Of a stretch of 64,000 bases of DNA, positions 14,259 through 60,656 are shown one piece after another; within the stretch, counting starts at the first letter, position 1; each line of letters starts with the position of its first letter. The position numbers were made by a program, and so were the translations under genes. The notes under the pieces were generated by a model, which saw only the letters and a program-made list of their open reading frames with translations, was not told the origin of the DNA and searched no databases. Source of the stretch: Deltaproteobacteria bacterium (GTDB taxonomy: Bacteria > JADJOY01); contig JADJOY010000008.1 in the NCBI GenBank assembly GCA_016713535.1, positions 212,580 through 276,579 of the forward strand. Reading direction: 5' to 3'.

Positions 14259-14262
14259 GGCG

Positions 14263-42979: not shown

Positions 42980-42983
<4 letters not shown>
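41973..42983 (-). CDS. meaB: Methylmalonyl-CoA mutase-associated GTPase MeaB
   Basis: P-loop [12 protein letters not shown], plus DxxG and NKAD motifs. A 4-bp overlap with mutB. Confidence 0.9.
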
Positions 42984-45141
<2,158 letters not shown>

Positions 45142-45144
<3 letters not shown>

Positions 45145-47273
45145 TGGCACGGCTCCCATGGCGCGGGCGAGGTTCGTGAGCGCGGCGACCAGGTCGGCGC
45201 CGGCGTAGAGACGAGGCAGCGCATCGATGCGGGCGCGGGTGGCCTCGTTGGTGAGGGTGCGGCCGATGAGCGCGAGCGGCGCGCCCGGCACCGCGGCGGC
45301 GACGCTCGCGACCAGCGCCGCGAGCGGCTCGGCCTCGGTGTCGTCGAGCGGCGAGAGCGCGATCGCGGCGGCGCCCCTCTCGGCCTTCGCGGCGGCGAGC
45401 GCCGCCGGTCCGGCGAGCCCCTCGCGGGTCACCACCTCGAAGCCCGCGACCTCGAGCACCTCGCGCGCGAAGCCGAGCTTGGCCTTGGCGCGCTTGCCGG
45501 TGTCGACCGCGGCGGCGAGCACCCGCGGACGGCGTCCGTCGCGGGCGAGGATCTTCTCGGAGGCGCGGCGGATGCGCTCGAAGCCTTCGGCGGCGCGCAC
45601 CGCCACGAGCGCCTCCACCTTCGGTCCGGCGAGCGCGTCGCCACGCAGCGCGGCGCGCAGCTCGCCGATCGTGGCGCCCGCGTCGGCCGCGGCGATCGCG
45701 GCGTCCACGCGCGCGGACGGCTCGCTCGCGCGCGCCACCCCGGCGAGCGCCTCGTCCCGCTTGGCGGCGTCGGCCGCGGCGCGCTGGCCGGCGAGCTCGG
45801 CGATCCGCTCCTCGCGCAGCGCCTTCAGGTCGCACGCCGGAACCGCGGGGCGCTGCTCGCCCAGGTTCGGGAACTTGGACACACCGATCAGCGGCTCGAC
45901 CCGCTTGCTCGCCGCGGCGCGCCGCTCGGCGCCGCGGGCACCCACCAGCGCCTGCGCCGCGCCACTCGCGAGCGCCGCCGCGAGCCCACCGGCCTTCTCG
46001 ATCTCCTGCAGCACGCTCCACGCGCGCGCGCGAGCGTGTCGGTGAGGCTCTCGACGAAGTACGAGCCGCCCGCGGGATCGTGGACCTTGGCGAGGTGGCT
46101 CTCGTCGCGCAGCAGCACGTGGGTGTTGCGGGCCACGCGCTGCGAGTGGCCGTCGCTCGGGCGCAGGGCGTGGTCGTAGGGCGCGACGGAGACGCTGTCC
46201 GCGCCGCCCACCACCGCCGCGAACGCTTCGACGGTGCCGCGGATCATGTTCACCCACGGATCGAACTGGGTCTCGCAGCGCCGCGACGTGCCGGCGTGGA
46301 TCGTGAGCGCGGCGGCCGCTTCCTCGCAAGCGTAGGCGGCGAGCACCTGTCCCCACACCAGCCGCGCGGCGCGCAGCTTCGCGGCCTCCAGGAACATCCG
46401 CGTGCCGACCGGGAAGGAGAGCCCGATGCGGCGCGCGGCGTCCGCCGCCGCCACGCCGCGGTCGACGAGCGCGCGCAGGTACTCGACCGCGGCGGCGATC
46501 GTGAGCCCGAGCTCCTGGTCCACCGCCGCGCCCGCGTCGTGGTAGGGGGCACCCGAGGCGATCGCGACCTTCAGGCGCGGCGCCTTCGCGCCGGCCCACC
46601 GCGCCAGCGCCGCCAGCTCCGCGTACGCCGCGTCGAGCTCGACGTGGCTGCCGCCGGTAGCGGCGAGGGCGCCGAGGGGGTCGGCGGCGATCGTGAGGCC
46701 GTCGAGCGCGGCGCCGCGCGCGTTGAGGCTCGCGATCGCCAGCGCCGCGAGCGCCAGCGGCGCCGGTCCGGTACCGACCACGAGCGCATGCTTCGTGGGG
46801 TCGAGGGGGGCCACGATCGCGGCCAGGTCGGCACGGCTCGCGAGCGACACGCCGCCGCTGCCGACCCGTCCGGCGCTCCGCGCATCGGCGGGGTCGAGCT
46901 CGGCGCGCGTGGCTTCGTCCGGGACCAGCGCGATCTCGGTGGCGCCGCCGGCGAGCTCGCTCGCGACGTGCGCCGTTGCGGCGGCGGGACGGACGTCCTC
47001 GACGTCGATGCGGACCGCCCACGGCCCGGCGTCGGCCCGAGTGCCGCGCACGTACGGCGCCGCTCCCGGGCGGCTACCGAGGTGCGGCACCGCGCTCTCG
47101 GCGTCGCGGACGTAGATGGGCCGCACCGGGATGCCGTCGAGCTGGCGGCGCCCGAGCTTCTCCTCGATCGGCTTACCGCCGAGCTCGGCGCGCGCGGCGT
47201 CGAGCCAGGCACTCTCGGTCGGCGGCGGGAACTCCTCGAACAGCGGACGCACCTCGGGAAGGGACGGGCTCAC
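45142..47273 (-). CDS. mutA: Methylmalonyl-CoA mutase small (beta) subunit, with an apparent frameshift near 46020-46045 (GC-repeat run)
   Basis: The N-terminal roughly 400 aa are coherent in ORF 45888..47273 up to ...[16 protein letters not shown]. The C-terminal roughly 300 aa are coherent in ORF 45142..47022 (...[18 protein letters not shown]...). The gene order mutA-mutB-meaB is as in mycobacteria. Confidence 0.75.
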
Positions 47274-47418
47274 GGGGTGTTTCTCCTCCGCGGCGAACCG
47301 CAGGAACGTCGGTTGGACGGCTCATAACGCGCCGTGTCGCGAAGCTAGCAGGGACCCCCAGGCGAGACAACGCGGTTCGGTGCCCCGGCGCGCCGCTGCG
47401 CTGCGGTAGTCTGCCGCC

Positions 47419-48273
47419 ATGAGCCAGCCGCCACCGAATCACGAGCAGGAACGTCACTGGAACGAGGAGGCGGGCCCGCGCTGGGTCGAGCACCGGGAGG
47501 AGCTCGACCGCCAGCTCGCACCATTCAGCGAGCGCCTGATCGAGCGGCTCGCGCCCGCGGCCGGCGAGCGCATCGTGGACGTGGGCTGCGGCTGCGGCAC
47601 CACCTCGATCGAGGTAGCGGGCCAGGTCGGAGCGCGCGGCGAGGTGCTCGGCGTCGACATCTCGAAGCCGATGCTCGACCTGGCACGGCAGCGGGGCGCC
47701 GGGATCGCAGAGCTCCGCTTCGAGCTCGCCGACGCCCAGACGTATCCCTATGCCCAGGGCCACTACGACGCCATCTGCTCGCGCTTCGGCGTGATGTTCT
47801 TCGCCGACCCGGCGCACGCGTTCGAGAACTTGGCGCGGGCGCTCGGGCCGGGTGGGCGCTTCGTGTTCCTGGCGTGGCAGGGGCGCGAGGTGAACCCGTG
47901 GTTCGCGCGGCTCATGGCGGCGGTCGCGAGCGTGATCGAGATCCCCAAGCCGCCGTCGCCCGATGCCCCGGGGCCGTTTTCGCTCGGCGCGGGCGAGCGC
48001 GTGGAGCGGCTGCTCACCGGGGCCGGGTTCGCGGCGCCGTCGATCGGTGACCTGCGCATGCCGTTTCGCTTCGGCGGCGGCGGCCGGGTGGAGGACGTGG
48101 TCGACTTCATGGTCGCGGCGGGGCCGATGGCGAAGCTGCTCGCCGACGCGCCCCCCGAGCGTGCCGCGGCGGCGCGTGAGGCGATGCACGCCGCGCTGGC
48201 GCCGTTCGCGTCGCCGGAGGGGGTGGTCGCGCCCTCGGCGTGCTGGCTCGTCGAAGCGCGAAAACCGGGCTGA
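47419..48273 (+). CDS. Class I SAM-dependent methyltransferase
   Basis: VDVGCGCGTTSIEVA...VLGVDISKPML...PGGRFVFLAW. Confidence 0.75.
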   Translation: MSQPPPNHEQERHWNEEAGPRWVEHREELDRQLAPFSERLIERLAPAAGERIVDVGCGCGTTSIEVAGQVGARGEVLGVDISKPMLDLARQRGAGIAELRFELADAQTYPYAQGHYDAICSRFGVMFFADPAHAFENLARALGPGGRFVFLAWQGREVNPWFARLMAAVASVIEIPKPPSPDAPGPFSLGAGERVERLLTGAGFAAPSIGDLRMPFRFGGGGRVEDVVDFMVAAGPMAKLLADAPPERAAAAREAMHAALAPFASPEGVVAPSACWLVEARKPG

Positions 48274-48339
48274 TCCGCGCACCGGGGAGCGGCGCGCCGT
48301 TTCCTTCTCGGGGCCCCGGGCGGCGGACATAATCGAGGC

Positions 48340-51300
48340 ATGAACCCGCCCAAGCCCGCCTCCGATCGTTCGCCCGCGGCCAGCCGTGTCGCGGCGCCCG
48401 CCGCCGAGCGCCCGCGCTTCGTCACCGCCGCGTCGCTCTTCGACGGCCACGACGCGTCCATCAACATCATGCGCCGCATCCTCCAGCAGGAGGGCGCCGA
48501 GGTGATCCACCTCGGTCACAACCGCTCGGTCGAGGAGATCGTGGCGGCGGCGATCCAGGAGGACGCCCACGGCATCGCGGTGTCCTCCTACCAGGGCGGG
48601 CACGTCGAGTTCTTCACCTACATGGTGGAGATGCTGCGCGAGCGCGGCGCAGGCCACGTGCGGGTGTTCGGCGGCGGCGGCGGCGTGATCGTCGACGACG
48701 AGATCGAAGCGCTTCACCGCGCCGGCGTCACGCGCATCTACTCGGTGGAGGACGGCCGCCGGCTCGGCCTGGTGGGCATGATCCGGGACATGCTGGCGCG
48801 TCTCGACCTGCAGCCGCTGCCATGCCCCGATGCGGTCCCCGACGGCGTCGTGCGCCGCGAGCCCGGAGCGCTGGGGCGCTTCATCAGCGCCCTCGAGCAG
48901 GCCGGCACAGACGACGGCGACGGCGCGAACGCCGGGGCGCTGGGCGCCATCCGCGACGCGCTGCGGGCGCGGATGCCGGCGCAGGCGGCGCCGATCGTGG
49001 GCATCACCGGCACCGGCGGCGCGGGCAAGTCGTCGGTCAACGACGAGCTGCTCCGGCGCATCCTCGATCACTTCCCCGAGCGTACGGTCGCGGTGCTGTC
49101 GGTCGACCCGACCCACCGCCGCACCGGCGGCGCCTTGCTCGGCGATCGCATCCGCATGAACGCCGCCCGCGGCGAGCGGGTCTTCATGCGCTCGATGGCG
49201 ACGCGGCGCGCGAACCTGGCCACCTCTGCAGCGGTCAGCGACGCGCTGCTCGCGCTGCGCGCGGCGTCCTTCGACCTGATCCTCCTCGAGACCGCCGGGA
49301 TCGGCCAGGGCGACAGCGAGGTGGTCGACCTCTCCGACCTCTCGCTCTACGTCATGACCCCCGAATACGGCGCGCCCTCGCAGCTCGAGAAGATCGACAT
49401 GCTCGAGCTCGCCGACCTGGTGGTGATCAACAAGGCCGACCGCCGCGGCGCCTCGGACGCGCTGCGCGAGGTACGCCGGCAGCTCCGCCGGGTGCGCGGC
49501 CTCACCAGCCTGGCACCCGAGGACATGCCGGTGTTCTCGACGATCGCGAGCCGCTTCGGCGACGCGGGCGTCGACCGGCTCTTCGCCGCGCTGATGCGCA
49601 AGGTGGGCGAGAAGAGCGGCCAGGACTGGAACCCCGGCGAGCCGCCCGCGCGCACCGGCGTGACCCTCACGGTGGTGCCGGACGCGCGCGTCCGCTATCT
49701 GGCCGAGATCGCCGAGACGTGCCGGTCATACCGCCAGCGGATCGCCGCCCAGGCCGAGCTCGTCGCCCGCGCGCAGGCGCTGGGCGTGGCGCTCGCCGAG
49801 CTCGGCGAGGTGCCACCACCGACATCCCTGGCCGAGCTGCCCGCGGGCGACGGCGACGCGAGCGGGCGCGACCCGGTGGTGGCCGAGCTGGCGCGCCGCT
49901 ACGGCGAGCTGGTCGAGAGCGTCGATCCGCGCCTCAAGCGCGAGCTCGGCGAGTTCCCGGCGTTGCGCGAGAGCTACGCGGCGGACGTCTCGAAGTTCAC
50001 CGTGCGCGGCAAGGAAGTGACGATCCGCAACGACTACCGGACCCTCTCGGGCACGCGGGTACCCAAGGTGTCGCTGCCGAGAGGCGATTCGCTGGGCGAC
50101 CTGACGCGCTGGCTCGGCGTCGAGAACGTCCCCGGCCGCTTCCCGTACACGGCGGGTGTGTTCCCGTTCAAGCGCGCGGAGGAGGACCCGACGCGCATGT
50201 TCGCGGGCGAGGGCACCGCGGAGCGCACCAACCGGCGCTTCCACTACGTGAGCCACGGGCTGCCCGCGGTGCGGCTCTCGACCGCCTTCGACTCGGTCAC
50301 GCTCTACGGCGACGACCCCGCCGAGCGCCCCGACATCTGGGGCAAGATCGGCAACAGCGGCGTCAGCGTGTGCACCCTCGACGATGCCAAGCGGCTCTAC
50401 TCGGGGTTCGACCTGGTGTCGCCCAAGTCGAGCGTGTCGATGACGATCAACGGCCCGGCGCCCGCGATCCTCGCGATGTTCCTGAACACCGCGATCGACC
50501 AGGCCGTGGAGAAGCGACTCCGCGAGAGCGGCCGCCTCGAAGCGGCACTCGCGAAGGCCCGCGCCGAGGCGGGCGGCGAGCTGCCGGTGTATCGCGGCGA
50601 GCTGCCCGCGGGCCACGACGGCGGCGGGATCGCGCTCCTCGGCACCAGCGGCGACCGGCTGCTGCCCGCGGAGGAGTACGCCGCGATCAAGGCGCGGGTG
50701 CTTGCGCAGGTCCGCGGCACCGTCCAGGCCGATATCCTGAAGGAGGACCAGGCCCAGAACACCTGCATCTTCTCGACCGACTTCGCCCTCAAGCTCATGG
50801 GCGACGTGCAGCAGTTCTTCGTCGAGAACGAGGTGCGCAACTTCTACAGCGTCTCGATCAGCGGCTACCACATGGCCGAGGCGGGCGCGAATCCGATCAC
50901 GCAGCTCGCGTTCACCCTCGCCAACGGCTTCACGTTCGTCGAGTACTACCGGGCGCGCGGGCTCGCGGTCGACGACTTCGCGCCGAATCTGTCGTTCTTC
51001 TTCTCGAACGGGCTCGACGCCGAGTACGCGGTGCTGGGGCGCGTGGCGCGCCGCATCTGGGCGGTGGCGATGCGCGAGCGCTACGCGGCCAACGAGCGCT
51101 CGCAGATGCTCAAGTACCACATCCAGACGAGCGGCCGGAGCCTGCACGCGCAGGAGGTCGACTTCAACGACATCCGCACCACGCTGCAGGCGCTGTACGC
51201 GATCTTCGACAACTGCCAGAGCCTGCACACCAACGCCTACGACGAGGCGGTGACCACGCCCACCGAGGAGTCGGTGCGGCGCGCGCTCGCGATCCAGCTC

Positions 51301-51816
51301 ATCATCAATCGCGAGCTCGGCTGGTCGAAGAACGAGAACCCACTTCAGGGCTCGTTCTTCGTCGAGGAGCTGACCGACCTTGTCGAGGACGCGGTGCTCG
51401 CCGAGTTCGAGCGGCTGAGCGACCGCGGCGGCGTGCTGGGTGCCATGGAGGCGATGTACCAGCGCGGCAAGATCCAGGACGAGAGCCTCCACTACGAGAC
51501 ACTCAAGCACTCGGGTGAGCTACCGATCGTGGGCGTCAACACCTTCCTTCACCCTGACCGCGCCGCTGCGGTGGGCGGAGTGCGCGAGCTGATCCGCTCC
51601 TCGGACGAGGAGAAGGCGAGCCAGGTGAGCGAACTGCGCCGCTTCCACGAGCGCAACGCCGAGCGTGCCCCCGCGGCGCTCGAGAAGCTCCGCCGCGTGG
51701 CCCTCGAAGGCGGCAACGTGTTCGCGGAGCTGATGGAGACGGTCAAGTGCGCCAGTCTGGGCCAGATCTCCCGCGTGCTCTACGACGTGGGCGGCCAGTA
51801 CCGGCGCTCGATGTGA
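48340..51816 (+). CDS. icmF: Fused isobutyryl-CoA mutase IcmF (B12-binding domain + MeaB-like GTPase + mutase substrate-binding domain)
   Basis: N-terminal DGHDASINIMRRIL B12-binding motif, central GITGTGGAGKSS P-loop with NKAD, then a C-terminal acyl-CoA mutase TIM barrel. 1158 aa. Confidence 0.9.
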   Translation: MNPPKPASDRSPAASRVAAPAAERPRFVTAASLFDGHDASINIMRRILQQEGAEVIHLGHNRSVEEIVAAAIQEDAHGIAVSSYQGGHVEFFTYMVEMLRERGAGHVRVFGGGGGVIVDDEIEALHRAGVTRIYSVEDGRRLGLVGMIRDMLARLDLQPLPCPDAVPDGVVRREPGALGRFISALEQAGTDDGDGANAGALGAIRDALRARMPAQAAPIVGITGTGGAGKSSVNDELLRRILDHFPERTVAVLSVDPTHRRTGGALLGDRIRMNAARGERVFMRSMATRRANLATSAAVSDALLALRAASFDLILLETAGIGQGDSEVVDLSDLSLYVMTPEYGAPSQLEKIDMLELADLVVINKADRRGASDALREVRRQLRRVRGLTSLAPEDMPVFSTIASRFGDAGVDRLFAALMRKVGEKSGQDWNPGEPPARTGVTLTVVPDARVRYLAEIAETCRSYRQRIAAQAELVARAQALGVALAELGEVPPPTSLAELPAGDGDASGRDPVVAELARRYGELVESVDPRLKRELGEFPALRESYAADVSKFTVRGKEVTIRNDYRTLSGTRVPKVSLPRGDSLGDLTRWLGVENVPGRFPYTAGVFPFKRAEEDPTRMFAGEGTAERTNRRFHYVSHGLPAVRLSTAFDSVTLYGDDPAERPDIWGKIGNSGVSVCTLDDAKRLYSGFDLVSPKSSVSMTINGPAPAILAMFLNTAIDQAVEKRLRESGRLEAALAKARAEAGGELPVYRGELPAGHDGGGIALLGTSGDRLLPAEEYAAIKARVLAQVRGTVQADILKEDQAQNTCIFSTDFALKLMGDVQQFFVENEVRNFYSVSISGYHMAEAGANPITQLAFTLANGFTFVEYYRARGLAVDDFAPNLSFFFSNGLDAEYAVLGRVARRIWAVAMRERYAANERSQMLKYHIQTSGRSLHAQEVDFNDIRTTLQALYAIFDNCQSLHTNAYDEAVTTPTEESVRRALAIQLIINRELGWSKNENPLQGSFFVEELTDLVEDAVLAEFERLSDRGGVLGAMEAMYQRGKIQDESLHYETLKHSGELPIVGVNTFLHPDRAAAVGGVRELIRSSDEEKASQVSELRRFHERNAERAPAALEKLRRVALEGGNVFAELMETVKCASLGQISRVLYDVGGQYRRSM

Positions 51817-51859
51817 GGCGGGCGCTGGCACTCGGTCGCGCTCGCCGCGGGCGCCGTCC

Positions 51860-53089
51860 GTGAAGGTGCTGCTGGTCACCGACTCCTTCCCGCCGCGCTG
51901 CGGCGGCAGTGGTCACAGCGTCCACGCGCTGGCCCGCGCGCTCGGCGACGCGGAGGCGGACGTGCGGGTGCTGCAGCGCGCGGCGGGCGCGCGCCCCGGG
52001 CGACGCGCACTCGAGGTCGGCGGCGTGGCGGGCGTGAGGCTCGTGATGCCGGAGGTGCGAACCCCGATCGTGCGCGACCTGTACCGCGCCGCGGTCCGCG
52101 ATCCGGCGCTCGCGCGCGCCATCCGCGAGGCCATCGACGACGAGCGGCCCGACGTGATCCACGCCCAGCAGGGGTCGAACTTCGCGCCCGCGCTGCGCGC
52201 CGCGCGCGGGGCGGGGGTGGCGGTGGTGGCGACGGTCCGCGACTACGCGCCGATCTGCCTGCGTACCACACGCTTCAGCGGCGGCGCGATCTGCCCTGGC
52301 TGCTCGGCGGCGCGGCTCGCGGCCTGCTTCGCCGATCGCTACGGGGCGCCCGCCTGGGCCTTCGCCCCGATGGTTCCGCTCGTACTGATCGCCACTCGCC
52401 GTCGCACCCGCGTGCTCTCGGCTTTCGATCGCGTGATCGCGGTGAGCGGCTACGTCCGCGACCGGCTCAGCGCGGGCGGCGTGACGGCGCCGATCGAGGT
52501 GGTCTCGAACGTACCGCCCGCGCCGCCCGCGAAGCCACCACGGCCGGCGGCCGCGAGCGGGTTCGAGTACGTACTCTTCGCCGGCAAGCTCAACCGCGAG
52601 AAGGGCGCCGACGGCCTCGCCGCGGTCGCAGCGGCGTTGCCTGCGCACGCTCGCCTCGTGGTGCTCGGCGACGGCCCGCTCGCGCCCGCGCTCGACGAGG
52701 CAGCTTCCGCCGGCGCGCCGATCGTGCGTTGCGGCGACGTCACCAACGACGAGGTGCTCGCATGGATCGCCCACGCCCGCGCGCTGCTCCTGCCGTCGCG
52801 CTGGCCCGAACCGCTGAGCCGGCTGCTCCTCGAGGCGGGCGCGTCCGGAGTACCGGTCGTGGCGCTCGCGACCGGCGGCACTGCGGAGCTGATCCGCGAC
52901 GGTGAGAACGGCCGCCTCGCCGTGGAGGCCGCCGCGCTGCCCGGGCTCGTTGCCGAGCTCGTGACCGATGCCGGGCTGCGCGGCCGCCTGGCCGCGGGTG
53001 CGCGCCGCATCGCCGCCACCCGCCCCGACCGCGTCGCGATCGTGGGCCGGATGCTCGACGTGTACCGGGAAGCGGTCGCGGCAGCGTGA
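51860..53089 (+). CDS. GT4-family glycosyltransferase
   Basis: MKVLLVTDSFPPRCGGSGHSVHAL... GT-B fold with a C-terminal EAGASGVPVVA...GENG motif. Confidence 0.8.
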   Translation: MKVLLVTDSFPPRCGGSGHSVHALARALGDAEADVRVLQRAAGARPGRRALEVGGVAGVRLVMPEVRTPIVRDLYRAAVRDPALARAIREAIDDERPDVIHAQQGSNFAPALRAARGAGVAVVATVRDYAPICLRTTRFSGGAICPGCSAARLAACFADRYGAPAWAFAPMVPLVLIATRRRTRVLSAFDRVIAVSGYVRDRLSAGGVTAPIEVVSNVPPAPPAKPPRPAAASGFEYVLFAGKLNREKGADGLAAVAAALPAHARLVVLGDGPLAPALDEAASAGAPIVRCGDVTNDEVLAWIAHARALLLPSRWPEPLSRLLLEAGASGVPVVALATGGTAELIRDGENGRLAVEAAALPGLVAELVTDAGLRGRLAAGARRIAATRPDRVAIVGRMLDVYREAVAAA

Positions 53090-53173
53090 CGGCTGGTTGC
53101 GGCGCGCCGCGCGGCGGTTGGACTAGTCCGGCGGAGCGGTTAGAAGACCGCCCCACGCCGCGGGGCGTCACCC

Positions 53174-54037
53174 ATGGCCACCGCCAACGTCGATCTCCAC
53201 CTCCACACGACTCTCTCGGACGGCACCCTTCCTCCCGAGGAGGTGATCGCGCTCGCCGCGGAAGAGGGCCTGAGCGCGGTGAGCCTGACCGACCACGACA
53301 CCGTCCGCTCGCTCGCCCGCGGCCAGGCCGCCGCTGCCCGCAAGGGTCTCGACTACCTGCCCGGCACCGAGATCAGCCTGGTCGTCCGTGATCGCTCGGT
53401 GCATCTCCTCGTGTATCTGTTCGACCTCGCGAGCCCGATGACTGCGGCCCTCGAGCGCCTCGAGCGCAGCCGCGCCGATCGGCTGCCGCGGCTGGTCGCC
53501 CGGCTCACCGAGCTCGGCATGCCGCTCGCCGAGGACGAGGTCCGCGCCGAGGCGGGCGGCGAGCTGATCGGACGGCTCCACTTCGCCCACGCCCTGATCC
53601 GTAAGGGCTACGTCGGTTCGGTGAGCGAGGCCTTCGAGCGCTGGCTGAGCCGGGGCCGGCCCGCGCACCTCGAGCGCGACCGGCTGACGCCCGCCGAGGC
53701 AATCGCGCTGGCGCGCGCCTCGGGCGGAGTCACGTCGGTGGCTCATCCGGGCCTGATCGACGAGGACGAGGGGATCGCGCTCGCGGTGATCGAGGACCTC
53801 GTCGCTCTCGGCCTCGACGGGATAGAGGTCTGGCACCCGTCCCACGCCGACGAGGCGCGCCGCCGCTACGCCCACCTGGCGCGGGCGCTCGGCCTGGTCG
53901 CGACCGGTGGCTCGGACTTCCACGGCGACAAGAAGCCAGGGCTCAGGGTGGGACGGGGACGCGGCGACCTCGCGGTGCCGGCCGAGGTCCTCGACGCGCT
54001 CGCCGATCGGCGCCGCTCGCGTGAGGTGCGCTCATGA
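53174..54037 (+). CDS. PHP-domain metal-dependent phosphoesterase
   Basis: VDLHLHTTLSDGTL...SLTDHDT...VAHPG...GIEVWHP...GGSDFHG is the PHP His/Asp motif set. The stop overlaps the ubiA start (ATGA). Confidence 0.75.
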   Translation: MATANVDLHLHTTLSDGTLPPEEVIALAAEEGLSAVSLTDHDTVRSLARGQAAAARKGLDYLPGTEISLVVRDRSVHLLVYLFDLASPMTAALERLERSRADRLPRLVARLTELGMPLAEDEVRAEAGGELIGRLHFAHALIRKGYVGSVSEAFERWLSRGRPAHLERDRLTPAEAIALARASGGVTSVAHPGLIDEDEGIALAVIEDLVALGLDGIEVWHPSHADEARRRYAHLARALGLVATGGSDFHGDKKPGLRVGRGRGDLAVPAEVLDALADRRRSREVRS

Positions 54038-54920
54038 CCCCCGCGGTGTGGGGCCGCTCGCTGTGGGCGTCGATGCGGCCCCACCAGTGGGTCAAGAACG
54101 GGCTGCTCTTCGCGGCGCTCGTGTTCGCGCAGAAGCTCGGCGATCCGGGCCGCGTGGCGACCGTGTGCGTCGCGTTCGCGCTGTGGTGCCTGATGGCGAG
54201 CGCGGTCTACCTGTGGAACGACCTCTTCGACCTCGAGGAGGACCGCCATCACCCCGAGAAGTGCCGGCGGCCGATCGCGAGCGGGGCGTTGCCGCCGGAG
54301 ATCGCGCGCAAGGCCTGCGCGGTGCTCGCCGCGGTGGCGATCCTCGGCGCCTTCCTGCTCGGGCGCGCGTTCGGCGTGGTGCTGGTCGCGTACGCGCTCA
54401 TGAACGTCGCATACACGATCCGTCTCAAGCACGTGGTGATTCTCGACGTCATGACCCTCGCCGCGGGCTTCGTGCTGCGCGCCGTCGGTGGCGGTGTCGT
54501 GATCCACGTCGAGGTCTCACCCTGGCTGGTGATCTGCACCATCCTGCTCGCGCTGTTCCTCGGGTTCGGCAAGCGTCGTCACGAGCTGGTGCTGCTCGAG
54601 GAGCGCGCGTCCGAGCATCGCAAGATCCTCCAGGAATACAGCCCGTATTTCCTCGACCAGATGATCTCGGTCGTGACCGCCTCGACGGTGGTCGCCTATT
54701 GTCTCTACACGCTCTCGCCCGAGGTCGCGAACAAGCTCCACGTCAAGCACCTGCACCTGACGGTGCCGTTCGTGCTCTACGGCATCTTCCGTTACCTCTA
54801 CCTCGTCCACCAGAAGGGGCAGGGGGGAAACCCCTCGCGCGTTCTGTTGACGGACCCACCCCCCTCATCACTACGATTGCGCTCTGGTTGCTGACGGCGA
54901 CGATCATCCTTTATCGCTGA
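54034..54920 (+). CDS. UbiA-family decaprenyl-phosphate phosphoribosyltransferase (DPPR synthase, Rv3806c-like), with an apparent 1-nt frameshift at the C6 run near 54859-54864
   Basis: HQWVKNGLLFAALVFA and NDLFDLEEDRHHPEKCRRPIASG motifs. The C-terminal TM helix (PLITTIALWLLTATIILYR) continues in another frame (ORF 53907..54920) after the homopolymer run. Confidence 0.8.
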
Positions 54921-55004
54921 GCCAACGCGGCTCGGCGCCGCGCGCGGGGCACGCAGTCTCCCCGGACCACCGTCCCACCTCGCGGCCCTCTCGGGTCGAC
55001 CGCC

Positions 55005-55586
55005 ATGGCCGAGCGCACCGAGCGAAGCGCCGCATCCGGCACCAGCCCCGACCCGACTCGCCCGGTCGCCAAGCAGCGTGACCCCGCGAAGGTCGCGAGC
55101 GAGTCGCCGCCGGTCGACGTGGACGCGCTGGTGGCGTCGGTGAAGGCCCGCCTGGACGCCAGCGACGCAGGCCACGACGGCGTGAGCGCGCCAGCGCCCG
55201 CGGTCAAGGCCGAGGTGCCGCTGCCGGACGAAGCGCTGGCACGCACCTTCGAGCTCCTCAGGCGCGCCGGGCCCCTCGATCCTCGCGTGCCCATCCAGTC
55301 GCACCGCGCCGTGGTCGGCCCGGTGGTGGTGCTCTTCAAGTCGCTGCTGCGGCGTGTCCTCGCGCCGGCCTTTTCGGCGCTCTTCGATCACCAAGCCCGC
55401 TTCGACCAGGCCTCGCTCGCGTACGCCGAGGAACTCTACAAGCGGATCGTGGGGATGGAGGGCGACCTGCGCACCCGCCTCGAGCGCATCGAGGCGCGCC
55501 ATGCGCTCGAGCTCGAGACCATCGAGCGCCGGCTCGGGCGGCTCGAGCGGCTGGTCGGCGGATCGTCCTCCGATTCGAGCGCGTGA
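55005..55586 (+). CDS. Hypothetical protein with a C-terminal coiled-coil
   Basis: Moderately complex 193-aa ORF co-oriented within the glycosyltransferase cluster; ...LERIEARHALELETIERRLGRLERLVG. Confidence 0.4.
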   Translation: MAERTERSAASGTSPDPTRPVAKQRDPAKVASESPPVDVDALVASVKARLDASDAGHDGVSAPAPAVKAEVPLPDEALARTFELLRRAGPLDPRVPIQSHRAVVGPVVVLFKSLLRRVLAPAFSALFDHQARFDQASLAYAEELYKRIVGMEGDLRTRLERIEARHALELETIERRLGRLERLVGGSSSDSSA

Positions 55587-55602
55587 CACCGCGGGACCGT
55601 CG

Positions 55603-57894
55603 ATGACTGCGCCGGTTCCGATCCACCAGTTCCTGCCCACGCTCAACCCGGGCGACGCGATCGGGAACGTGACGCGCGCGATGCGCGACGCGATCCGCGC
55701 GATGGGCCATCCGTCCGAGATCTTCGCCGAGAACGTCGATCCCTCGCTCGCCGGCGAGGCGCACCGCTACGCGGAGTACCCGCACTTCGAGGATCCCCGC
55801 AACGTCCTCCTCTACCACTACAGCGTGGCCTCGCCGCTCAGCGAGTTCCTGCGCCTGACCTGGGAGAGGAAGGTCCTGATCTACCACAACGTGACACCGC
55901 CCTCGTTCTACGACGACCTCGAGCCTCACATCCGCGCGGTGCTCGCCCGCAGCGAGGACGAGCTGCGCGCGCTCGCGCCGGTGATCGACGTGGCGGTCGG
56001 TGACTCGGGCTTCAACTGCTCCGAGCTCACCCGCTTCGGCTTCCGCGATCCACAGGTGCTACCGATCCTCCTCGACCTGCACAAGCTCGAGCGCGAGATG
56101 GACGCCGACACCCTGGTCGACGAGTCGGGCGCCGAGCACCGCATCCTGTTCGTCGGCAAGCTCGGTCCCAACAAGCGCTTCGAAGACCTGATGTTGTGCT
56201 TCGAGCACTACCGTCGCACCCGCGATCCCAAGGCGAAGCTGGTGCTGATCGGCGGTTCGTTCAGCCCCATGTACGAGCAGCGGGTACGCGCGCTCCAGCA
56301 ACACCTGGGGCCCGATTCGATCGTGCTGAAGGGCGCAGTTTCGCAAGGCGTGCTCAACGCGTACTACCGCAAGGCTGCGCTCTTCCTGTGCCTGAGCGAT
56401 CACGAGGGCTACTGCGTGCCACTCGTCGAGTGCATGTACCTCGGCTTGCCGGTGGTCGCGTTCCGTCACCCCGGGGTCGAGTGGACGCTCGGCGGCAGCG
56501 GGCTGCTCCTCGACCGCAAGGACCCCGAGACCGTGGCCGCGGCGATGGAGCGCGTGCTCACCGACCCGATGCTGCGCAAGAACGTGGTCGACGGCCAGAA
56601 GAAGCGCCTCGAGGAGCTCTCGCCGACGCGCGTGAAGCAGCGCCTCGCCGAGGTCCTGGGGATGGCGCTCGCGCGCCCGGTGCGCAAGCCCAGGATCGCG
56701 TTCGTGGTGCAGCGCTACGGCGCCGAGGTGAGCGGTGGCAGCGAGGCCCATTGCCGGCTGGTCGCCGAGCACCTGAAGGACAAGGCCGAAGTGCAGGTTC
56801 TCACCACCACCGCGCGCGACTACGAGACCTGGCGTGAGCACTACCCACCCGGAGTCGGCGACGTGAACGGTGTCCGTGTCGAGCGCTTTCCGGTACTGGC
56901 CGAGCGCGACCTGGCCCGGTTCTCGGAGGAGAGCGAAGCCGTGTTCGCGGCGCGCGACCGCAAGCCCGAGGACGAGGCGCGCTGGATCCTCGATCAGGGC
57001 CCGTTCGCACCGGCGCTGGTCGATGCGATCGGCGAGCGCGTCGCCGACGTCGACGCGTTCGTCTTCTTCACCTACCTCTACTATCCGACGGTGATGGGCC
57101 TCCTGAAGGCGGGCGAGAAGGGCCTGCTCGTGCCGACGGCCCACGACGAGGCGCCGTTCCACTTCCGCATCGTACAGAGCGCGATGAAGCGCGCCGCAGG
57201 GATGATCTTCAACACCGAGGAGGAGCGCGCGCTCATCGAGTGCGCGCAGGGCGGGCCACGCGGCATCGGCATCATCACCGGCGTCGGCATCGAGGAGCCC
57301 GAGGACTACTCGGCGGCGCGGTTCCGCGCGCGCACCGGCATCGAGCGGCCCTTCCTGCTTTACGTGGGCCGGATCAGCCCGGCCAAGGGCTGCCTGCAGA
57401 TCCTCGACTTCCACACCGCCATGCGTACCGCATGGCCCGATTGTCCGGACCTGGTGTTCGTCGGCAAGGCCGAGATCGGGCTCGACGGGCGACCGGGGGT
57501 TCACGCGCTCGGTTTCGTCCAGGACGAGCGTGACAAGTTCGACGCGCTCGCCGCGGCGCTCGCGCTGGTCAACCCGTCGCCGATGGAGAGCCTATCGATG
57601 GTGCTCCTCGAGGCGTGGCTCGCCGGCACGCCGACCATCGCGAACGCCGCCTGCGCGGCGCTGGTGGGGCAGAGCCGCCGCTCGAAGGGCGGGGTCTGGT
57701 ACCACTCGTACGAGGAGTTCGAGGCGCTGGTGCGGCTGCTGGCCGGTGATCCCGAGCTGCGCGCGCGCCTCGGCCGCGCGGGACGCGAGTTCGTGCGCGG
57801 CCACTACCACTGGGATCTCATCAACCACAAGTATCTCGTCGCGCTGCGCTACCTCGATCTCGACGCGCGAGCGCGCGCGACGGAGGCTGCCTGA
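55603..57894 (+). CDS. Tandem double GT4-domain glycosyltransferase (763 aa)
   Basis: Two GT-B halves in one polypeptide. The second half (IAFVVQRYGAEVSGGSEAHCR...) is paralogous to the GT at 58676. The ATG lies at 55603. Confidence 0.8.
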   Translation: MTAPVPIHQFLPTLNPGDAIGNVTRAMRDAIRAMGHPSEIFAENVDPSLAGEAHRYAEYPHFEDPRNVLLYHYSVASPLSEFLRLTWERKVLIYHNVTPPSFYDDLEPHIRAVLARSEDELRALAPVIDVAVGDSGFNCSELTRFGFRDPQVLPILLDLHKLEREMDADTLVDESGAEHRILFVGKLGPNKRFEDLMLCFEHYRRTRDPKAKLVLIGGSFSPMYEQRVRALQQHLGPDSIVLKGAVSQGVLNAYYRKAALFLCLSDHEGYCVPLVECMYLGLPVVAFRHPGVEWTLGGSGLLLDRKDPETVAAAMERVLTDPMLRKNVVDGQKKRLEELSPTRVKQRLAEVLGMALARPVRKPRIAFVVQRYGAEVSGGSEAHCRLVAEHLKDKAEVQVLTTTARDYETWREHYPPGVGDVNGVRVERFPVLAERDLARFSEESEAVFAARDRKPEDEARWILDQGPFAPALVDAIGERVADVDAFVFFTYLYYPTVMGLLKAGEKGLLVPTAHDEAPFHFRIVQSAMKRAAGMIFNTEEERALIECAQGGPRGIGIITGVGIEEPEDYSAARFRARTGIERPFLLYVGRISPAKGCLQILDFHTAMRTAWPDCPDLVFVGKAEIGLDGRPGVHALGFVQDERDKFDALAAALALVNPSPMESLSMVLLEAWLAGTPTIANAACAALVGQSRRSKGGVWYHSYEEFEALVRLLAGDPELRARLGRAGREFVRGHYHWDLINHKYLVALRYLDLDARARATEAA

Positions 57895-58679
57895 TGTCCG
57901 ACCGTGAGCCCGTGCGACTGACCTCGCTCGACGAGTCCTTCGACACGGCGCTGAAGGACCTCCTCGGCGGCGTCGACGTGCGCAGCGCGACGGTGGTCCC
58001 GCCGGCGGCGGGGACTGTCGCTGGGCCGACTCGGTCCGACCAGGCGCTCGCGTACCTGAAGGCCACCTACGGGCTCGAGCCGCTCGCGTCCGGGGCGCCC
58101 GTCGCCGTCGAGCGCACCGGCGGGCTCGGCGGCTTCCTGCGACGGCTCGCCCGCAGGCTCTTCGTGTCGCGCACCTACCACGCGACGCTGGTCACGATGG
58201 TCGCCGACGTGGCCGAGCGGCAGGCCGCGCTGGACGCGCGCCTCCAGGCCCTCGCGAGCGCCCAGAGCCTCGCCAACGAGCGTGCGGCGCGAGTCGTGTT
58301 CCGGCTGTGGGGCGACTACAACCACCTCGTGCGGGTGGTCCTCGACCACCACGTCAACGAGGTGTTCGGCGCGTTCGAGCGCCACTTCGGCGCGTTCCAG
58401 GATCACTTCCACGCCTTCGAGCGCCACTTCGGCGCGTTCCAGGAGCACTTCCAGGCTTTCGAGCGCCACTTCGACGCGAACGTCGAGACGGTGCGCGAGG
58501 TCACCGAGGCGTTGCGCAAGCTCGAGCAGGCGGTCCACGAGATCGAGGGGCCCCATGACGAGCTGGTGCGCTCGGTGACCGAGCTTCTCGCGACGCGGGC
58601 TCGCGAGGAGGTACTGGCGCGGCGCGTCGAGGCGCTCGAGGACGTCCGTGCCGGCGCCGCTGAGCCGGCCGCCTCGTGA
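57894..58679 (+). CDS. Hypothetical protein with five tandem His/Phe-rich octapeptide repeats (ERHFGAFQ-like)
   Basis: ...EVFGAFERHFGAFQDHFHAFERHFGAFQEHFQAFERHFDANVE... It is translationally coupled on both sides (ATGA at 57894 and GTGA at 58676). Confidence 0.5.
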   Translation: MSDREPVRLTSLDESFDTALKDLLGGVDVRSATVVPPAAGTVAGPTRSDQALAYLKATYGLEPLASGAPVAVERTGGLGGFLRRLARRLFVSRTYHATLVTMVADVAERQAALDARLQALASAQSLANERAARVVFRLWGDYNHLVRVVLDHHVNEVFGAFERHFGAFQDHFHAFERHFGAFQEHFQAFERHFDANVETVREVTEALRKLEQAVHEIEGPHDELVRSVTELLATRAREEVLARRVEALEDVRAGAAEPAAS

Positions 58680-59875
58680 GGGTCGCCGCGGTCGTGCAGC
58701 GCTACGGCGCCACCGTAGCGGGTGGCGCCGAGCGTCTCGCCCGCGAGGTCTGCACCCGGCTCGCGGCGGGAGGGGACGAGGTCACCGTCCTCACCACCAC
58801 GGCGCGCGACTACGTGACCTGGCGAAACGAGCTGCCCGCCGGCGCGGCGGACGACACCGGTGTCGCGGTGCGGCGCTTCGCGGTCGCGAGCGAACGCGAG
58901 CCGGACGCGTTCCAGGCGCTGAGCGCGCGCGTCTTCCGCGAGGGCGCGATGCCCACGCTCGAGGACGAGCTCGGCTGGATTCGCGCACAGGGACCGGACT
59001 CGCCAGGGCTGCTCGCGGCGCTTTGGCGCGAGCGGACGCTTCACGACGCGTGGCTCTTCTTCACGTACCTCTACGCGCCAACGGCGCTCGGCGTGCCGAT
59101 CGCTCCGCAGCGCGCGGTGCTGGTGCCGCTCGCGCACAACGAGGCGCCGATCTATCTGCGCACCTTCAAGAACCTGTTCCGGCTGCCGCGTGCCTTGCTC
59201 TTCCAGACTCCCGAGGAGCAGGAGCTGGTGGAGCGCGTGGTGCCGCGCAACACCGTGCGTGGCGAGGTCGTGGGCTGCGGCGTGGACCTGGCGCCGGCCT
59301 CGGCGCCCGAGGCCGCGTGGCCCGCGAGCGTGCCGCCCGGAGCGCGCTATCTCCTCTACCTGGGCCGGCTCGACCCGTCGAAGGGCGTGGGCGAGCTGCT
59401 CGATGCGTTCGCGAGCTGGCGCGCGACGCGCGGGGGCGCGCTCGCGCTGGTGCTCGCCGGTGAGGCCGCGATGGAGCTGCACGCGGCGCAGGGCGTGGTG
59501 GTCCCGGGTTTCGTGTCCGAAGACGAGCGCGACCGGCTGCTCGCACACGCGGAGGTGGTGATCCAGCCGTCGCGCTTCGAGAGTCTCTCGCTGGTGGCGC
59601 TCGAAGCGTGGGCGCGTGGCCGAGCGGTGCTGGGGCAGCGTGGCTCGGACGTGCTCGTCGGGCAGATCGGGCGCAGCGGCGGCGGCTTCGTCTGGGGGGA
59701 GCCCGCCGAGCTCCACGCGCTCCTCGACCGGCTCGCCGCGGGCGACGCCGCGTTCGCCGAAGCGGGCCGCGCCGGGCGGCGCTTCGTCGAGGCGACCGGC
59801 TCGTGGGAGCGAGTGATCGAGCGCTATCGAGCGGCGCTGGTGACGGCCGCGAGCGGGGCGCCGCGGGCGGCGTGA
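58676..59875 (+). CDS. GT4-family glycosyltransferase
   Basis: MRVAAVVQRYGATVAGGAERLAREVC... is paralogous to the second half of the double GT. Confidence 0.8.
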   Translation: MRVAAVVQRYGATVAGGAERLAREVCTRLAAGGDEVTVLTTTARDYVTWRNELPAGAADDTGVAVRRFAVASEREPDAFQALSARVFREGAMPTLEDELGWIRAQGPDSPGLLAALWRERTLHDAWLFFTYLYAPTALGVPIAPQRAVLVPLAHNEAPIYLRTFKNLFRLPRALLFQTPEEQELVERVVPRNTVRGEVVGCGVDLAPASAPEAAWPASVPPGARYLLYLGRLDPSKGVGELLDAFASWRATRGGALALVLAGEAAMELHAAQGVVVPGFVSEDERDRLLAHAEVVIQPSRFESLSLVALEAWARGRAVLGQRGSDVLVGQIGRSGGGFVWGEPAELHALLDRLAAGDAAFAEAGRAGRRFVEATGSWERVIERYRAALVTAASGAPRAA

Positions 59876-59894
59876 GCGCCCCTCGCCGACCAAA

Positions 59895-59923
59895 TTGACG
59901 GAGGTGGGGGTGAGTGCTAGATA
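59895..59923 (+). promoter_or_regulatory. Candidate sigma70-type promoter for the pyr operon (-35 TTGACG, 17-bp spacer, -10 TAGATA)
   Basis: Spacing and hexamers are read directly from the sequence, upstream of the pyrR leader. Confidence 0.4.
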
Positions 59924-59987
59924 GCGCGCGGCTCTCACGCAGGGGCACCGCATGAGCGGGTTCGCCGCGCGGGTCTCGACCCGACCT

Positions 59988-60017
59988 CGCCTCCCACCGG
60001 GAGGGAGGTTTTTTTTT
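59988..60017 (+). terminator. Rho-independent terminator / pyrR leader attenuator (cctccc-loop-gggagg followed by T9)
   Basis: GC stem followed by nine T residues, about 40 nt upstream of the pyrR ATG and about 110 nt downstream of the glycosyltransferase stop. Confidence 0.7.
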
Positions 60018-60055
60018 AATCTCGTCTCGTATCGGCCGGACGGAATCGCCTCGTC

Positions 60056-60656
60056 ATGACCACGAAGACCGCGCCTCGGCGGCGGCTGCCGCGAGGGTAC
60101 CGGATCGCCCGGAATCTGCTCGGCCCAGCGGAGCTGGACGCGGCGCTCGGCGCGATGGCGAGCGAGATCCGCTCCCGGAACCCAGAGCCCGACCAGGTGG
60201 CGCTGATCGGCATCCGGCGAGGGGGAGTCCACCTCGCGAACCGGCTGGCGAAGCTCCTCGCGGTCGCCGGACGCGAGCCGCCGGTCGGGATCGTCGACAT
60301 CACCCTCTACCGCGACGACCTCGACCGGGTGGGGCCGAACCCGATCGTCGGCTCGACCGAGATCCCGTTCGAGATCGAGGGCATCACGGTCGTGCTCGTC
60401 GACGACGTGCTCTATACCGGCCGCACCGTCCGCGCCGCGCTGGACGCCTTGCTCGACTACGGTCGGCCGCGCGGCGTCCAGCTCGCGGTGCTCGTCGATC
60501 GCGGCCACCGCGAGCTGCCGATCCAGCCCGACTACGCGGGGCTCCGCGAGGCGACCCGTCCCACCGATCAGGTCGAGGTGCTGCTCGCCGAGGAGGGTGG
60601 CGACGACACCGCGGTGCTGCTCGAGCGTGAGGTCGCCGCGACCCCGGGAGGCGCCC

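Follow-up and report, generated by a model that had tools for sequence, protein, structure and literature searches.

A seven-gene array around a UbiA-family phosphoribosyltransferase gene is more probably a mosaic of separable parts than a single pathway

The seven-gene array at positions 51860–59875 of the DNA analysed here (a 64-kb stretch, referred to as the window) is, with a probability of about 0.6, a mosaic of separable parts and not a single pathway centred on its UbiA-family gene. Family assignments, residue conservation and the synteny pattern, all of which were observed, carry this reading.

Both the open reading frames and the Pfam and NCBIfam matches bore out the gene order and the families given in an earlier sequence-only reading of this DNA, with all seven genes on the plus strand. 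A family 4 (GT-B) glycosyltransferase of 409 aa (GT4a, 51860–53089; Pfam Glyco_transf_4 and Glycos_transf_1) is followed by a 287-aa PHP-domain phosphoesterase of the TrpH/YciV (COG0613) type (PHP, 53174–54037; Pfam PHP), a polyprenyl-phosphate 5-phosphoribosyltransferase of the DPPRS/PPPRS type (UbiA, 54034–54920), a 193-aa protein (hyp193, 55005–55586), a 763-aa protein with two GT4 modules (dGT4, 55603–57894), a 261-aa His/Phe-rich heptad-repeat protein (HFrep, 57894–58679) and another family 4 glycosyltransferase of 399 aa (GT4b, 58676–59875; Pfam). The stop/start overlaps were present at all three sites where they had been claimed, as ATGA at 54034–54037, TGATG at 57892–57896 and GTGA at 58676–58679. 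A scan of positions 51500–60200 found no terminator in the interior of the array and one strong terminator-like site, a plus-strand hairpin with a T-run at 59989–60018 between GT4b and pyrR, which likely closes the array on its 3' side or serves as a pyr leader. The seven co-oriented genes are probably co-transcribed, and they are flanked by acyl-CoA mutase genes (IcmF) on one side and by pyrR-pyrB-pyrC on the other. The host is an uncultured bacterium, and its DNA has a GC content of about 71%.

The claim that UbiA is of the DPPR-synthase kind was upheld. UbiA scored 297.7 bits against the NCBIfam DPPR synthase model NF008977 (cut-off 234), and its best and only solved relative was Rv3806c (8j8j, E 4e-37), matched over the full length at an identity that is moderate as judged by eye on the alignment. 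Every other UbiA subfamily model of NCBIfam gave 48 bits or less, and a quinone or heme O prenyltransferase was rejected on these scores; the match to NF006088 (209 bits, cut-off 351) was restricted to the UbiA part. Of the 11 residues with a demonstrated role in PRPP and Mg binding by Rv3806c (PMC10994848), nine are identical in UbiA (R22, K28, Y70, N73, D77, K87, R90, Y138 and K143) and the other two are replaced (Q135 by Asn, Y157 by Phe); nearly all of the PRPP-, Mg- and 5-phosphate-binding residues are kept. Judged by its sequence, UbiA is a member of the PRPP-dependent polyprenyl-phosphate phosphoribosyltransferase family, and its conserved residues suggest that it would move ribose-5-phosphate from PRPP onto polyprenyl phosphate on the inner face of the membrane, the product probably being a lipid-linked ribose phosphate.

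The end of UbiA at 54920 held for the intact form of the gene only; the open reading frame in the window stops at 54894, and position 54920 is reached only after a change of frame. At 54859–54864 the window reads six C, where a contig of the same species (L002) has four. Intact read-through to ...LLTDPPLITTIALWLLTATIILYR was found in three related MAGs and in P0121, a 100%-identical intact UbiA protein of 294 aa with five member sequences from other assemblies. Splits between frames also affect at least three more genes of the window, which indicates an assembly error, and the 2-bp frameshift is probably such an error. The six C, the stop at 54894 and the replacement of the conserved C-terminal helix LITTIALWLLTATIILYR would also be expected of a true pseudogene, in which a real 2-bp insertion removes the last transmembrane helix and no phosphoribosyl lipid is made, but this is improbable in view of the intact L002 contig and P0121, the homopolymer at the frameshift site and the other split genes.

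The mycobacterial decaprenyl-phospho-arabinose pathway consists of the DPPR synthase Rv3806c, the PAP2 protein Rv3807c, DprE1/DprE2 and GT-C arabinosyltransferases. The window resembles it in UbiA and differs in the remaining components: Pfam scans of about 60 ORFs across the whole 64 kb detected neither DprE1 nor DprE2, as had been noted for the immediate surroundings, and no GT-C, GtrA, MATE or PAP2 gene. No flippase of any kind and no DUF362 gene were found in the window. Dephosphorylation, epimerisation, flipping and use of the UbiA product would be encoded outside the window. In the three-component pentofuranose systems of Gram-negative bacteria, the same kind of synthase (PPPRS) is fused to a HAD phosphatase (C. 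youngae ORF15) and acts with a MATE flippase, a GT136 GT-C enzyme and an optional SDR epimerase (PMC11127046). Polyprenyl-phosphoribose was already established as a donor by these systems, and a phosphatase that differs between pentofuranose systems has also been reported; both the ribose-rather-than-arabinose donor and the non-orthologous 5-phosphatase proposed for this array are thus published ideas (PMC11127046). Unlike those systems, the window has no HAD domain fused to UbiA and no MATE flippase, GT-C or epimerase gene, and the phosphatase candidate here is PHP, which is not linked to UbiA in a conserved way.

PHP is most likely, as far as its sequence tells, an ordinary TrpH/COG0613 trinuclear-metal phosphoesterase of its lineage, and its substrates would be 5'-phosphorylated nucleotides or short RNA. 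Its NCBIfam matches include pAp phosphatase, RNase AM and phosphoribosyl cyclic phosphodiesterase, and they exclude a HisB-type histidinol phosphatase, which had been raised as a possible refutation. The scores were 195 bits against the 3',5'-nucleoside bisphosphate phosphatase model NF041577 (cut-off 400) and 150 bits against the RNase RNM model (cut-off 375), and because PHP reaches the cut-off of neither characterised equivalog its substrate assignment is a putative one. The best solved relatives are Cv1693 (2yb1) and E. coli RNase AM/YciV (7ug9), with which PHP shares the fold family and the trinuclear-metal ligands (H9, H11, D16, H41, E66, H77, H191, D248 and H250), invariant in 121 subfamily members. 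Equally invariant, in the window copy as in the others, are R100, R103 and R134, the counterparts of an Arg triad burying the 5'-phosphate in these relatives, and F154, the counterpart of their base-stacking Phe (PMC9410882). The one active-site difference from RNase AM is Leu (L194) at the position of R201, and Leu is found there in most of the subfamily.

These residues bear on the proposal that PHP is a dedicated, non-orthologous 5-phosphatase for polyprenyl-phospho-5-phosphoribose, replacing the PAP2 (Rv3807c) or HAD (PRP) phosphatases, with polyprenyl-phosphoribose serving a glycan to whose synthesis the neighbouring gene products contribute. The pairing is chemically suggestive, since a phosphomonoesterase is required for the UbiA product and phosphoribosyl compounds are substrates of COG0613 enzymes; that relatives hydrolyse phosphoribosyl substrates, that PHP falls under the equivalog cut-offs and that the phosphatase is non-orthologous between the known systems (PMC11127046) also speak for the proposal. 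However, characterised relatives bind the 5'-phosphate without cleaving it (PMC9410882), and the Arg triad and Phe are kept exactly as in the subfamily members that are not linked to UbiA. A PHP protein specialised for a UbiA pathway is unsupported by the sequence, which shows no departure from that widespread subfamily in a comparison of 121 homologues. Unlike Rv3807c and the HAD PRP domain, PHP is not fused to UbiA and showed no membrane anchor when its sequence was read by eye. The lack of GT-C and flippase genes in the window counts against the proposal as well, and it is considered doubtful, both for the substrate and donor roles and for the replacement of the known phosphatases.

The distribution of the gene pair also counts against the proposal. 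The ATGA overlap of PHP and UbiA occurs in the window and in two related genomes (L009 and L010), that is, in three of the four, and the two genes are almost certainly co-expressed; this overlap and the single-strand array with no internal terminator favour a dedicated phosphatase. Against it, the adjacency is missing outside one lineage, whether approached from UbiA or from PHP. Beyond the window, the complete array was seen in L005/L011, L009 and L010 only (UbiA 84–94% and PHP 74–91% identical), and the adjacency is likewise restricted to these three closely related MAGs. In the nearest outgroup (L089; UbiA 70%, IcmF 69% and dGT4 63% identical), IcmF is followed by an unrelated membrane protein and then by UbiA, a homologue of hyp193 and dGT4; GT4a and PHP are both missing. 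No PHP gene was found by tblastn or HMM within 7–10 kb of UbiA at any of 75 further loci (50–63% identity) from Zixibacteria, Ignavibacteria, Binatia, Planctomycetota, Myxococcota and others. Conversely, one of 80 metagenome PHP loci, from the same lineage, had a UbiA gene, and the other 79 had none. Conservation of the coupling across genomes, which had been put forward as a check, therefore does not extend beyond one narrow lineage, and with the pairing so limited the proposed new pathway is unsupported. Because the pairing in all four genomes goes back to a single event, it lacks an independent replicate. Nor does PHP stand in place of a usual PAP2 enzyme: the UbiA clade has no regular phosphatase neighbour, PAP2 genes occurring at 10 of 79 UbiA loci and at a distance of about 4.5 kb. 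A lineage-specific recruitment of PHP may be compatible with the absence of the pairing elsewhere.

GT4a shows the same restriction, being present only in the window and the three closest MAGs. It is very unlikely that GT4a and PHP form a pair unrelated to UbiA, in which the glycosyltransferase acts on a phosphorylated acceptor and PHP removes the phosphate. Sucrose-phosphate synthase/phosphatase and MshA/MshA2 are precedents for such a pair, the two genes come and go as a unit (the window, L005, L009 and L010 have both, L089 has neither), and GT4a weakly matches the MshA, BshA and sucrose-phosphate synthase models. All NCBIfam matches of GT4a, these included, are far under cut-off, however; a GT4a homologue lies beside PHP in none of 79 other PHP loci, and 84 nt separate GT4a from PHP, whereas PHP overlaps UbiA.

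The remaining genes also point to a mosaic. The suggestion that a polyprenyl-phosphoribose donor feeds the flanking GT4 enzymes conflicts with what is established for this family: GT4 enzymes are cytoplasmic Leloir GT-B enzymes with nucleotide-sugar donors and would not be able to use the lipid, while GT-C enzymes are the ones that take lipid-phospho-sugar donors. The protein dGT4, with two Glycos_transf_1 stretches, most likely begins at the ATG at 55603 rather than at the longest-ORF start at 55354, in agreement with the 763-aa length of its orthologues. Its partner hyp193 had no Pfam or NCBIfam match, contains an SHR..VG...K..LRR motif and, at its C terminus, a coiled-coil-like segment, and adjoins dGT4 in the outgroup too. 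Full-length dGT4 homologues (37–39% identity) adjoin genes for an ABC-2 permease and a Wzt-type ATPase; at two such loci (L170 and L171) the dGT4 homologue precedes a small protein resembling hyp193 (hhalign E 7e-5, probability 63%), after which come the ABC-2 permease and a Wzt_C ATPase, and neither UbiA nor PHP is present. Thus hyp193 and dGT4 are a module separate from UbiA, found elsewhere with an ABC-2 exporter and without UbiA. The His/Phe repeat reported for HFrep is real, with the heptad AF(E/Q)xHFx encoded by a 21-nt (7-aa) tandem array at 58365–58478 (TRF periods 21 and 42); HFrep had no Pfam or NCBIfam match above threshold. GT4b is related to the second module of dGT4 and shares about 40% identity with the C-terminal module in dGT4 homologues. 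In architecture, and not by a sequence-similarity match, dGT4 and its neighbours may be likened to WbdA/WbdD of E. coli O9a, the textbook ABC-transporter-dependent system in which a two-module GT4 polymerase has a coiled-coil partner: dGT4 is flanked by small coiled-coil-like proteins, its L170/L171 homologues have genes for an ABC-2 permease and a Wzt_C ATPase as neighbours, and the heptad copy number of HFrep, which varies among orthologues, is a further likeness. The window differs in having no Wzm/Wzt genes and no kinase or methyltransferase terminator domain.

In conclusion, the activities of the array enzymes, and the absence of coupling among them, are predicted from these comparisons. 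The UbiA clade is very conserved, and its gene is found singly in many phyla with shifting neighbourhoods. PHP and GT4a would have come to lie upstream of UbiA in one narrow lineage, and hyp193, dGT4, HFrep and GT4b would make up a cytoplasmic module for building polysaccharide from nucleotide sugars, of the kind found elsewhere beside an ABC-2 (Wzm/Wzt) exporter.

Seven co-oriented open reading frames, each with the high third-position GC content of real genes, occupy positions 51860-59875 of the forward strand, in a window with about 71% GC throughout. The sequence-only reading had correctly assigned all seven to their families, namely a GT4-family glycosyltransferase (GT4a), a PHP-family protein, a UbiA-family protein, a 193-amino-acid protein that matched no family (hyp193), a two-module GT4 glycosyltransferase (dGT4), a His/Phe-rich protein of 261 amino acids (HFrep) and a last GT4 enzyme (GT4b), and the overlaps of stop and start codons that it described were exact (ATGA at 54034, TGATG at 57894 and GTGA at 58676). 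The start of dGT4 most likely lies at 55603, because its orthologues, like the resulting protein, have 763 amino acids. The HFrep gene contains a true 21-nt tandem array (58365-58478), which encodes the heptad AF(E/Q)xHFx.

Upstream of the array are the gene for IcmF, a fused isobutyryl-CoA-mutase-like protein (48340-51816), a methyltransferase gene and a divergent methylmalonyl-CoA mutase/MeaB cluster, and downstream are pyrR, pyrB and pyrC. The sole strong terminator-like site in the region was found 3' of GT4b at 59989-60018, which makes a single transcript for the array plausible. This site, a strong hairpin followed by nine T, lies within the spacer of 180 nt ahead of pyrR (59880-60055), and the hairpin may both end the array and act as a pyr attenuator. 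An Rfam scan of the whole window for the PyrR leader and other RNA detected no family at the gathering score. The nearest metagenome-assembled genomes (MAGs) are labelled 'uncultured bacterium' or 'bacterium STL-UNK1', and metagenomes, some of them from wastewater, contained identical copies of the PHP protein on short contigs.

The UbiA protein scored above the cut-offs of both NCBIfam equivalog models named decaprenyl-phosphate phosphoribosyltransferase, with 297.7 bits for NF008977 (cut-off 234) and 229.8 bits for NF008978 (cut-off 207). Assignment as a quinone, heme O, chlorophyll or archaeal-lipid prenyltransferase was rejected, with at most 48 bits against 298 bits (the next UbiA model outside the phosphoribosyltransferases scored 48.3). 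The only solved relatives were two structures of Rv3806c, the mycobacterial decaprenyl-phosphoryl-phosphoribose (DPPR) synthase, which aligned end to end and in which the N-D-x-x-D-x-x-x-D motif YLVNDVRDVEADREHPTKRFRPIAAG corresponds to YLWNDLFDLEEDRHHPEKCRRPIASG of UbiA. According to the residue roles described in the cryo-EM study of Rv3806c (PMC10994848), the Mg/pyrophosphate ligands Asn73 and Asp77, the pyrophosphate Lys/Arg cluster (Arg22, Lys87, Arg90 and Lys143) and Tyr138 are identical in UbiA. Among the residues holding the ribose and its 5-phosphate, Lys28 and Tyr70 are identical, Gln135 is replaced by Asn, and Tyr157 is replaced by Phe, as in some mycobacteria (PMC10994848). Since conservation of the phosphoribose-binding residues does not extend to ordinary UbiA prenyltransferases (PMC10994848), their retention in this protein is a specific argument for phosphoribosyl pyrophosphate (PRPP) as the donor. 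These results support the prediction that UbiA is a PRPP-dependent polyprenyl-phosphate 5-phosphoribosyltransferase, the DPPR-synthase type to which it had been assigned.

The UbiA reading frame as assembled stops at 54894, and the conserved C-terminal helix (...LITTIALWLLTATIILYR) continues in another frame to 54920. The C-run at 54859-54864 has six C in the window versus four in the same-species contig, an excess of 2 bp. UbiA is in frame in three related MAGs and in a 100%-identical 294-amino-acid protein from other assemblies, and at least three further genes of the window, encoding an amine oxidase, an ABC ATPase and a cytidylyltransferase, are split between frames (17153-18625, 37955-39354 and 13821-14582, all on the reverse strand), which suggests an error-prone assembly. 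Because the same-species copies are intact and other genes of the window are also split, the frameshift is likely to have arisen in the assembly of a homopolymer and not to mark a pseudogene.

The overlap of the PHP and UbiA genes had been taken to indicate that PHP is a dedicated 5-phosphatase for the UbiA product, in a PHP-dependent variant pathway. Both the co-translation of the two genes and the chemical plausibility of the reaction speak for this proposal; we nevertheless consider it unlikely, since neither the comparative analysis nor the sequence of PHP supports it and its claimed tie to the GT4 genes is contradicted. When one genome per species was scanned, PHP adjoined UbiA in only three of 80 UbiA loci, L005 (identical to L011), L009 and L010, in which UbiA is 84-94% identical to that of the window and the entire 12-kb array, IcmF included, is common. 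L009 and L010 retain the ATGA overlap of the two genes, which in L005 are separated by a gap of 38 nt. In the nearest outgroup, L089 (UbiA 70%, IcmF 69% and dGT4 63% identical), IcmF is followed by an unrelated multi-pass membrane protein, then by UbiA, a homologue of hyp193 and dGT4, and GT4a and PHP are absent. The membrane protein at the GT4a/PHP position of L089 (7509-9913) has about 800 amino acids and no Pfam match, and is apparently split by a frameshift into ORFs of 570 and 244 amino acids.

Within 7-10 kb of the 75 other UbiA genes (50-63% identity), which came from Zixibacteria, Ignavibacteria, Bacteroidota, Chlorobi, Binatia, Planctomycetota, Myxococcota, Gemmatimonadota, Aminicenantes and others, no PHP gene was found by tblastn or with a PHP HMM. 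A divergent PHP gene hidden beside other UbiA genes was also considered and rejected, as an HMM built from 121 PHP sequences gave no matches beyond L009 and L010. From the PHP side, UbiA was present in just one of 80 metagenome loci (PHP 33-75% identical), which belongs to the same lineage, and an actinobacterial contig carries a 47%-identical PHP among unrelated genes. Seen from either side, the coupling is therefore absent beyond one lineage, a lack of conserved synteny that the sequence-only reading had itself named as refuting its proposal, and the pairing traces to a single evolutionary event.

An FtcD-PHP-DUF4159 arrangement, in which FtcD is a formiminotransferase-cyclodeaminase, occurs in 33 of the 80 PHP loci (L093, L094, L096-L098, L101 and about 27 more metagenome contigs). 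It was discarded as a general context of the PHP subfamily: the FtcD copies checked were 73-83% identical to the cluster representative, and the arrangement thus represents a single related group, not a universal context. Neither the window lineage nor the closest PHP homologues outside it show this arrangement.

The best NCBIfam matches of the PHP protein included the 3',5'-nucleoside bisphosphate phosphatase model NF041577 (195 bits, cut-off 400), the RNase RNM model NF047791 (150 bits, cut-off 375) and phosphoribosyl cyclic phosphodiesterase, and its best solved relatives were Cv1693 (2yb1) and E. coli RNase AM (7ug9). With scores below the cut-offs, PHP is a COG0613/TrpH-type member of the broader family that belongs to neither characterised equivalog. 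A HisB/HisK-type histidinol phosphatase, an identity that the sequence-only reading had named as fatal to its own proposal, was rejected, since only the N-terminal residues 6-44 (39 residues) matched NF004981, at 35.5 bits (cut-off 117), and no his genes were detected near PHP in the ORF scans of the window.

The active-site residues of RNase AM (PMC9410882) were mapped onto an alignment of the window PHP and its 120 best homologues (121 sequences). All nine ligands of the trinuclear metal centre are present in PHP (H9, H11, D16, H41, E66, H77, H191, D248 and H250). The arginines that bury the 5'-phosphate, R100, R103 and R134 (Arg107, Arg110 and Arg141 of RNase AM, with a pairwise register uncertain by one residue for R100 and R103), and the base-stacking F154 (Phe161) are invariant in the 121 sequences. 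The sole departure from RNase AM, Leu at the Arg201 position, was rejected as a clade-specific change, because the position is L, T, S or I in the whole subfamily and Arg in only 3 of the 121 sequences. As the pocket residues are common to the whole subfamily, the UbiA-linked PHP proteins give no sign of an altered substrate pocket, and the pocket that they keep would be one built for a 5'-phosphorylated nucleotide.

The genes on the other side of UbiA have relatives of their own. Full-length homologues of dGT4 (37-39% identity) were found on two unrelated contigs (L170 and L171) with no UbiA or PHP nearby, where their stop codon overlaps the start of a gene for a 148-155-amino-acid protein, and genes for an ABC-2 permease and a Wzt_C-domain ATPase come next. 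Profile comparison matched the 148-155-amino-acid protein to the hyp193 family (E 7e-5, probability 63%) over 96 columns that include an SHR..G...K motif, and the second module of the double GT4 homologues shares about 40% identity with GT4b. This separate kinship indicates that hyp193, dGT4, HFrep and GT4b belong to one module whose evolutionary history is its own, apparently of the type that serves ABC-transporter-dependent polysaccharide synthesis and not organised around UbiA. Homology between hyp193 and HFrep was not supported (hhalign probability 0.8%). Searches of solved structures with GT4a and dGT4 gave weak generic GT4 matches, from which no donor or acceptor could be assigned. The number of HFrep heptads (AF(E/Q)xHFx) varies between the orthologues, with about three more in L010 (4959-5780) than in L005 (9786-10508) or L009 (13489-14142); by analogy, a variable coiled coil beside a polymerising glycosyltransferase may recall chain-length rulers.

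GT4 glycosyltransferases are cytoplasmic GT-B enzymes whose donors are nucleotide sugars, whereas GT-C enzymes use polyprenyl-phospho-sugar donors on the outer face of the membrane. It is therefore mechanistically unlikely that the UbiA product feeds the flanking GT4 enzymes, and the polyprenyl-phosphoribose supply proposed for them is contradicted by their donor type.

In the mycobacterial route, Rv3806c is followed by the PAP2 enzyme Rv3807c, by DprE1/E2 and then by GT-C arabinosyltransferases. A Pfam scan of about 60 ORFs across the 64 kb of the window revealed no MATE, GtrA or SMR flippase, no GT-C transferase and no PAP2, DprE1 or DprE2, and no FAD_binding_4/ALO protein was found in the window, so that the earlier remark that DprE1/DprE2 genes are missing near UbiA holds for the whole 64-kb window. 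DprE1/DprE2 or an SDR epimerase is required only for arabinose or xylose donors, and the single SDR gene of the window (25304-26086) lies 28 kb away among acyl-CoA genes. As for a 5-phosphatase, no PAP2 or HAD gene adjoins UbiA; the overlapping gene is PHP, with a linkage confined to one lineage.

Kelly et al. (2024; PMC11127046) showed that polyprenyl-phosphoribose itself acts as the donor in Gram-negative O-antigen modification. In their work, a HAD phosphoribose phosphatase can be fused to the synthase, the phosphatases vary in structural family from one system to another, and the ribose donor can be turned into xylose by an SDR epimerase; the remaining components are a MATE flippase and a GT-C enzyme (GT136). 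P. aeruginosa uses a PAP2 homologue as the phosphatase, and glycosylation is only lowered when this homologue is lost (bioRxiv 10.1101/2020.04.19.049825). Given the ribose donor and the differing phosphatases of PMC11127046, both conceptual novelties of the sequence-only reading are already published, and the sole new element would be a PHP-fold phosphatase. A full-text literature search combining the DPPR synthase name with 'PHP' found no relevant paper. A more elaborate alternative is that a lineage-specific TrpH-type PHP was recruited as a third, non-orthologous polyprenyl-phospho-ribose-5-phosphate phosphatase, after PAP2 and HAD, and that the lipid-linked ribose serves as the donor for an unlinked GT-C, or as a lipid acceptor or primer, for a glycan whose backbone is made by hyp193, dGT4, HFrep and GT4b; we regard this as quite improbable.

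Other genes recur beside UbiA in its wider clade, the members of which are 50-63% identical and come from many phyla. The commonest neighbour encodes a DUF362 protein of about 370 amino acids, located directly downstream on the same strand in 36 of the 68 loci whose downstream sequence is long enough (L012, L015, L016, L022, L026, L031, L045, L067, L071 and 27 more, with UbiA at about 10001-10860), and an EamA/DMT transporter gene comes next in 18 of these 36. In Binatia- and Thermodesulfobacteriota-type loci (12-15 loci, including L013, L029, L033, L034, L037, L065, L075 and L086), UbiA is followed by genes for a small cupin and a GalE-like NAD-dependent epimerase/dehydratase, the latter paralleled by the SDR epimerase ORF13 of the C. 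youngae O2 system. The conserved partners of the UbiA synthase are the DUF362 and cupin/GalE-like genes, not PHP. Neither DUF362 nor the cupin/GalE-like pair was found in the window lineage. The LarA clan is one of nickel-pincer racemases. DUF362 belongs to this clan (PMC11770544), and by analogy the DUF362 protein could be an epimerase for the lipid-linked pentose and the EamA/DMT transporter its flippase.

Acyl-CoA mutase genes were also observed near UbiA. Of 69 loci, 19 have one directly upstream, and these 19 all come from Bacteroidota, Ignavibacteria or Chlorobi (L028, L031, L036, L038 and others); in the window lineage (41973-51816 in the window) and in L089 (3957-7365), an IcmF-type fused mutase gene precedes UbiA by one or two genes. 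This proximity may be due to chance.

In conclusion, the array is probably a mosaic of separable parts rather than one UbiA-centred pathway (probability about 0.6). From the variant pathway proposed earlier, the gene layout and the assignment of UbiA stand, while the coupling to PHP lacks comparative support and the feeding of the GT4 enzymes is contradicted. If PHP were the 5-phosphatase, it would bring a third enzyme fold to a step already filled by unrelated enzymes and would add an unclassified bacterial lineage to those with lipid-linked pentofuranose glycosylation; the advance would be modest, because the logic of the pathway is already published (PMC11127046). The main lesson at present is that one lineage-specific adjacency can mimic a pathway, and the more useful lead lies outside the window, in the UbiA clade with DUF362, often together with EamA, or with a GalE-like epimerase.
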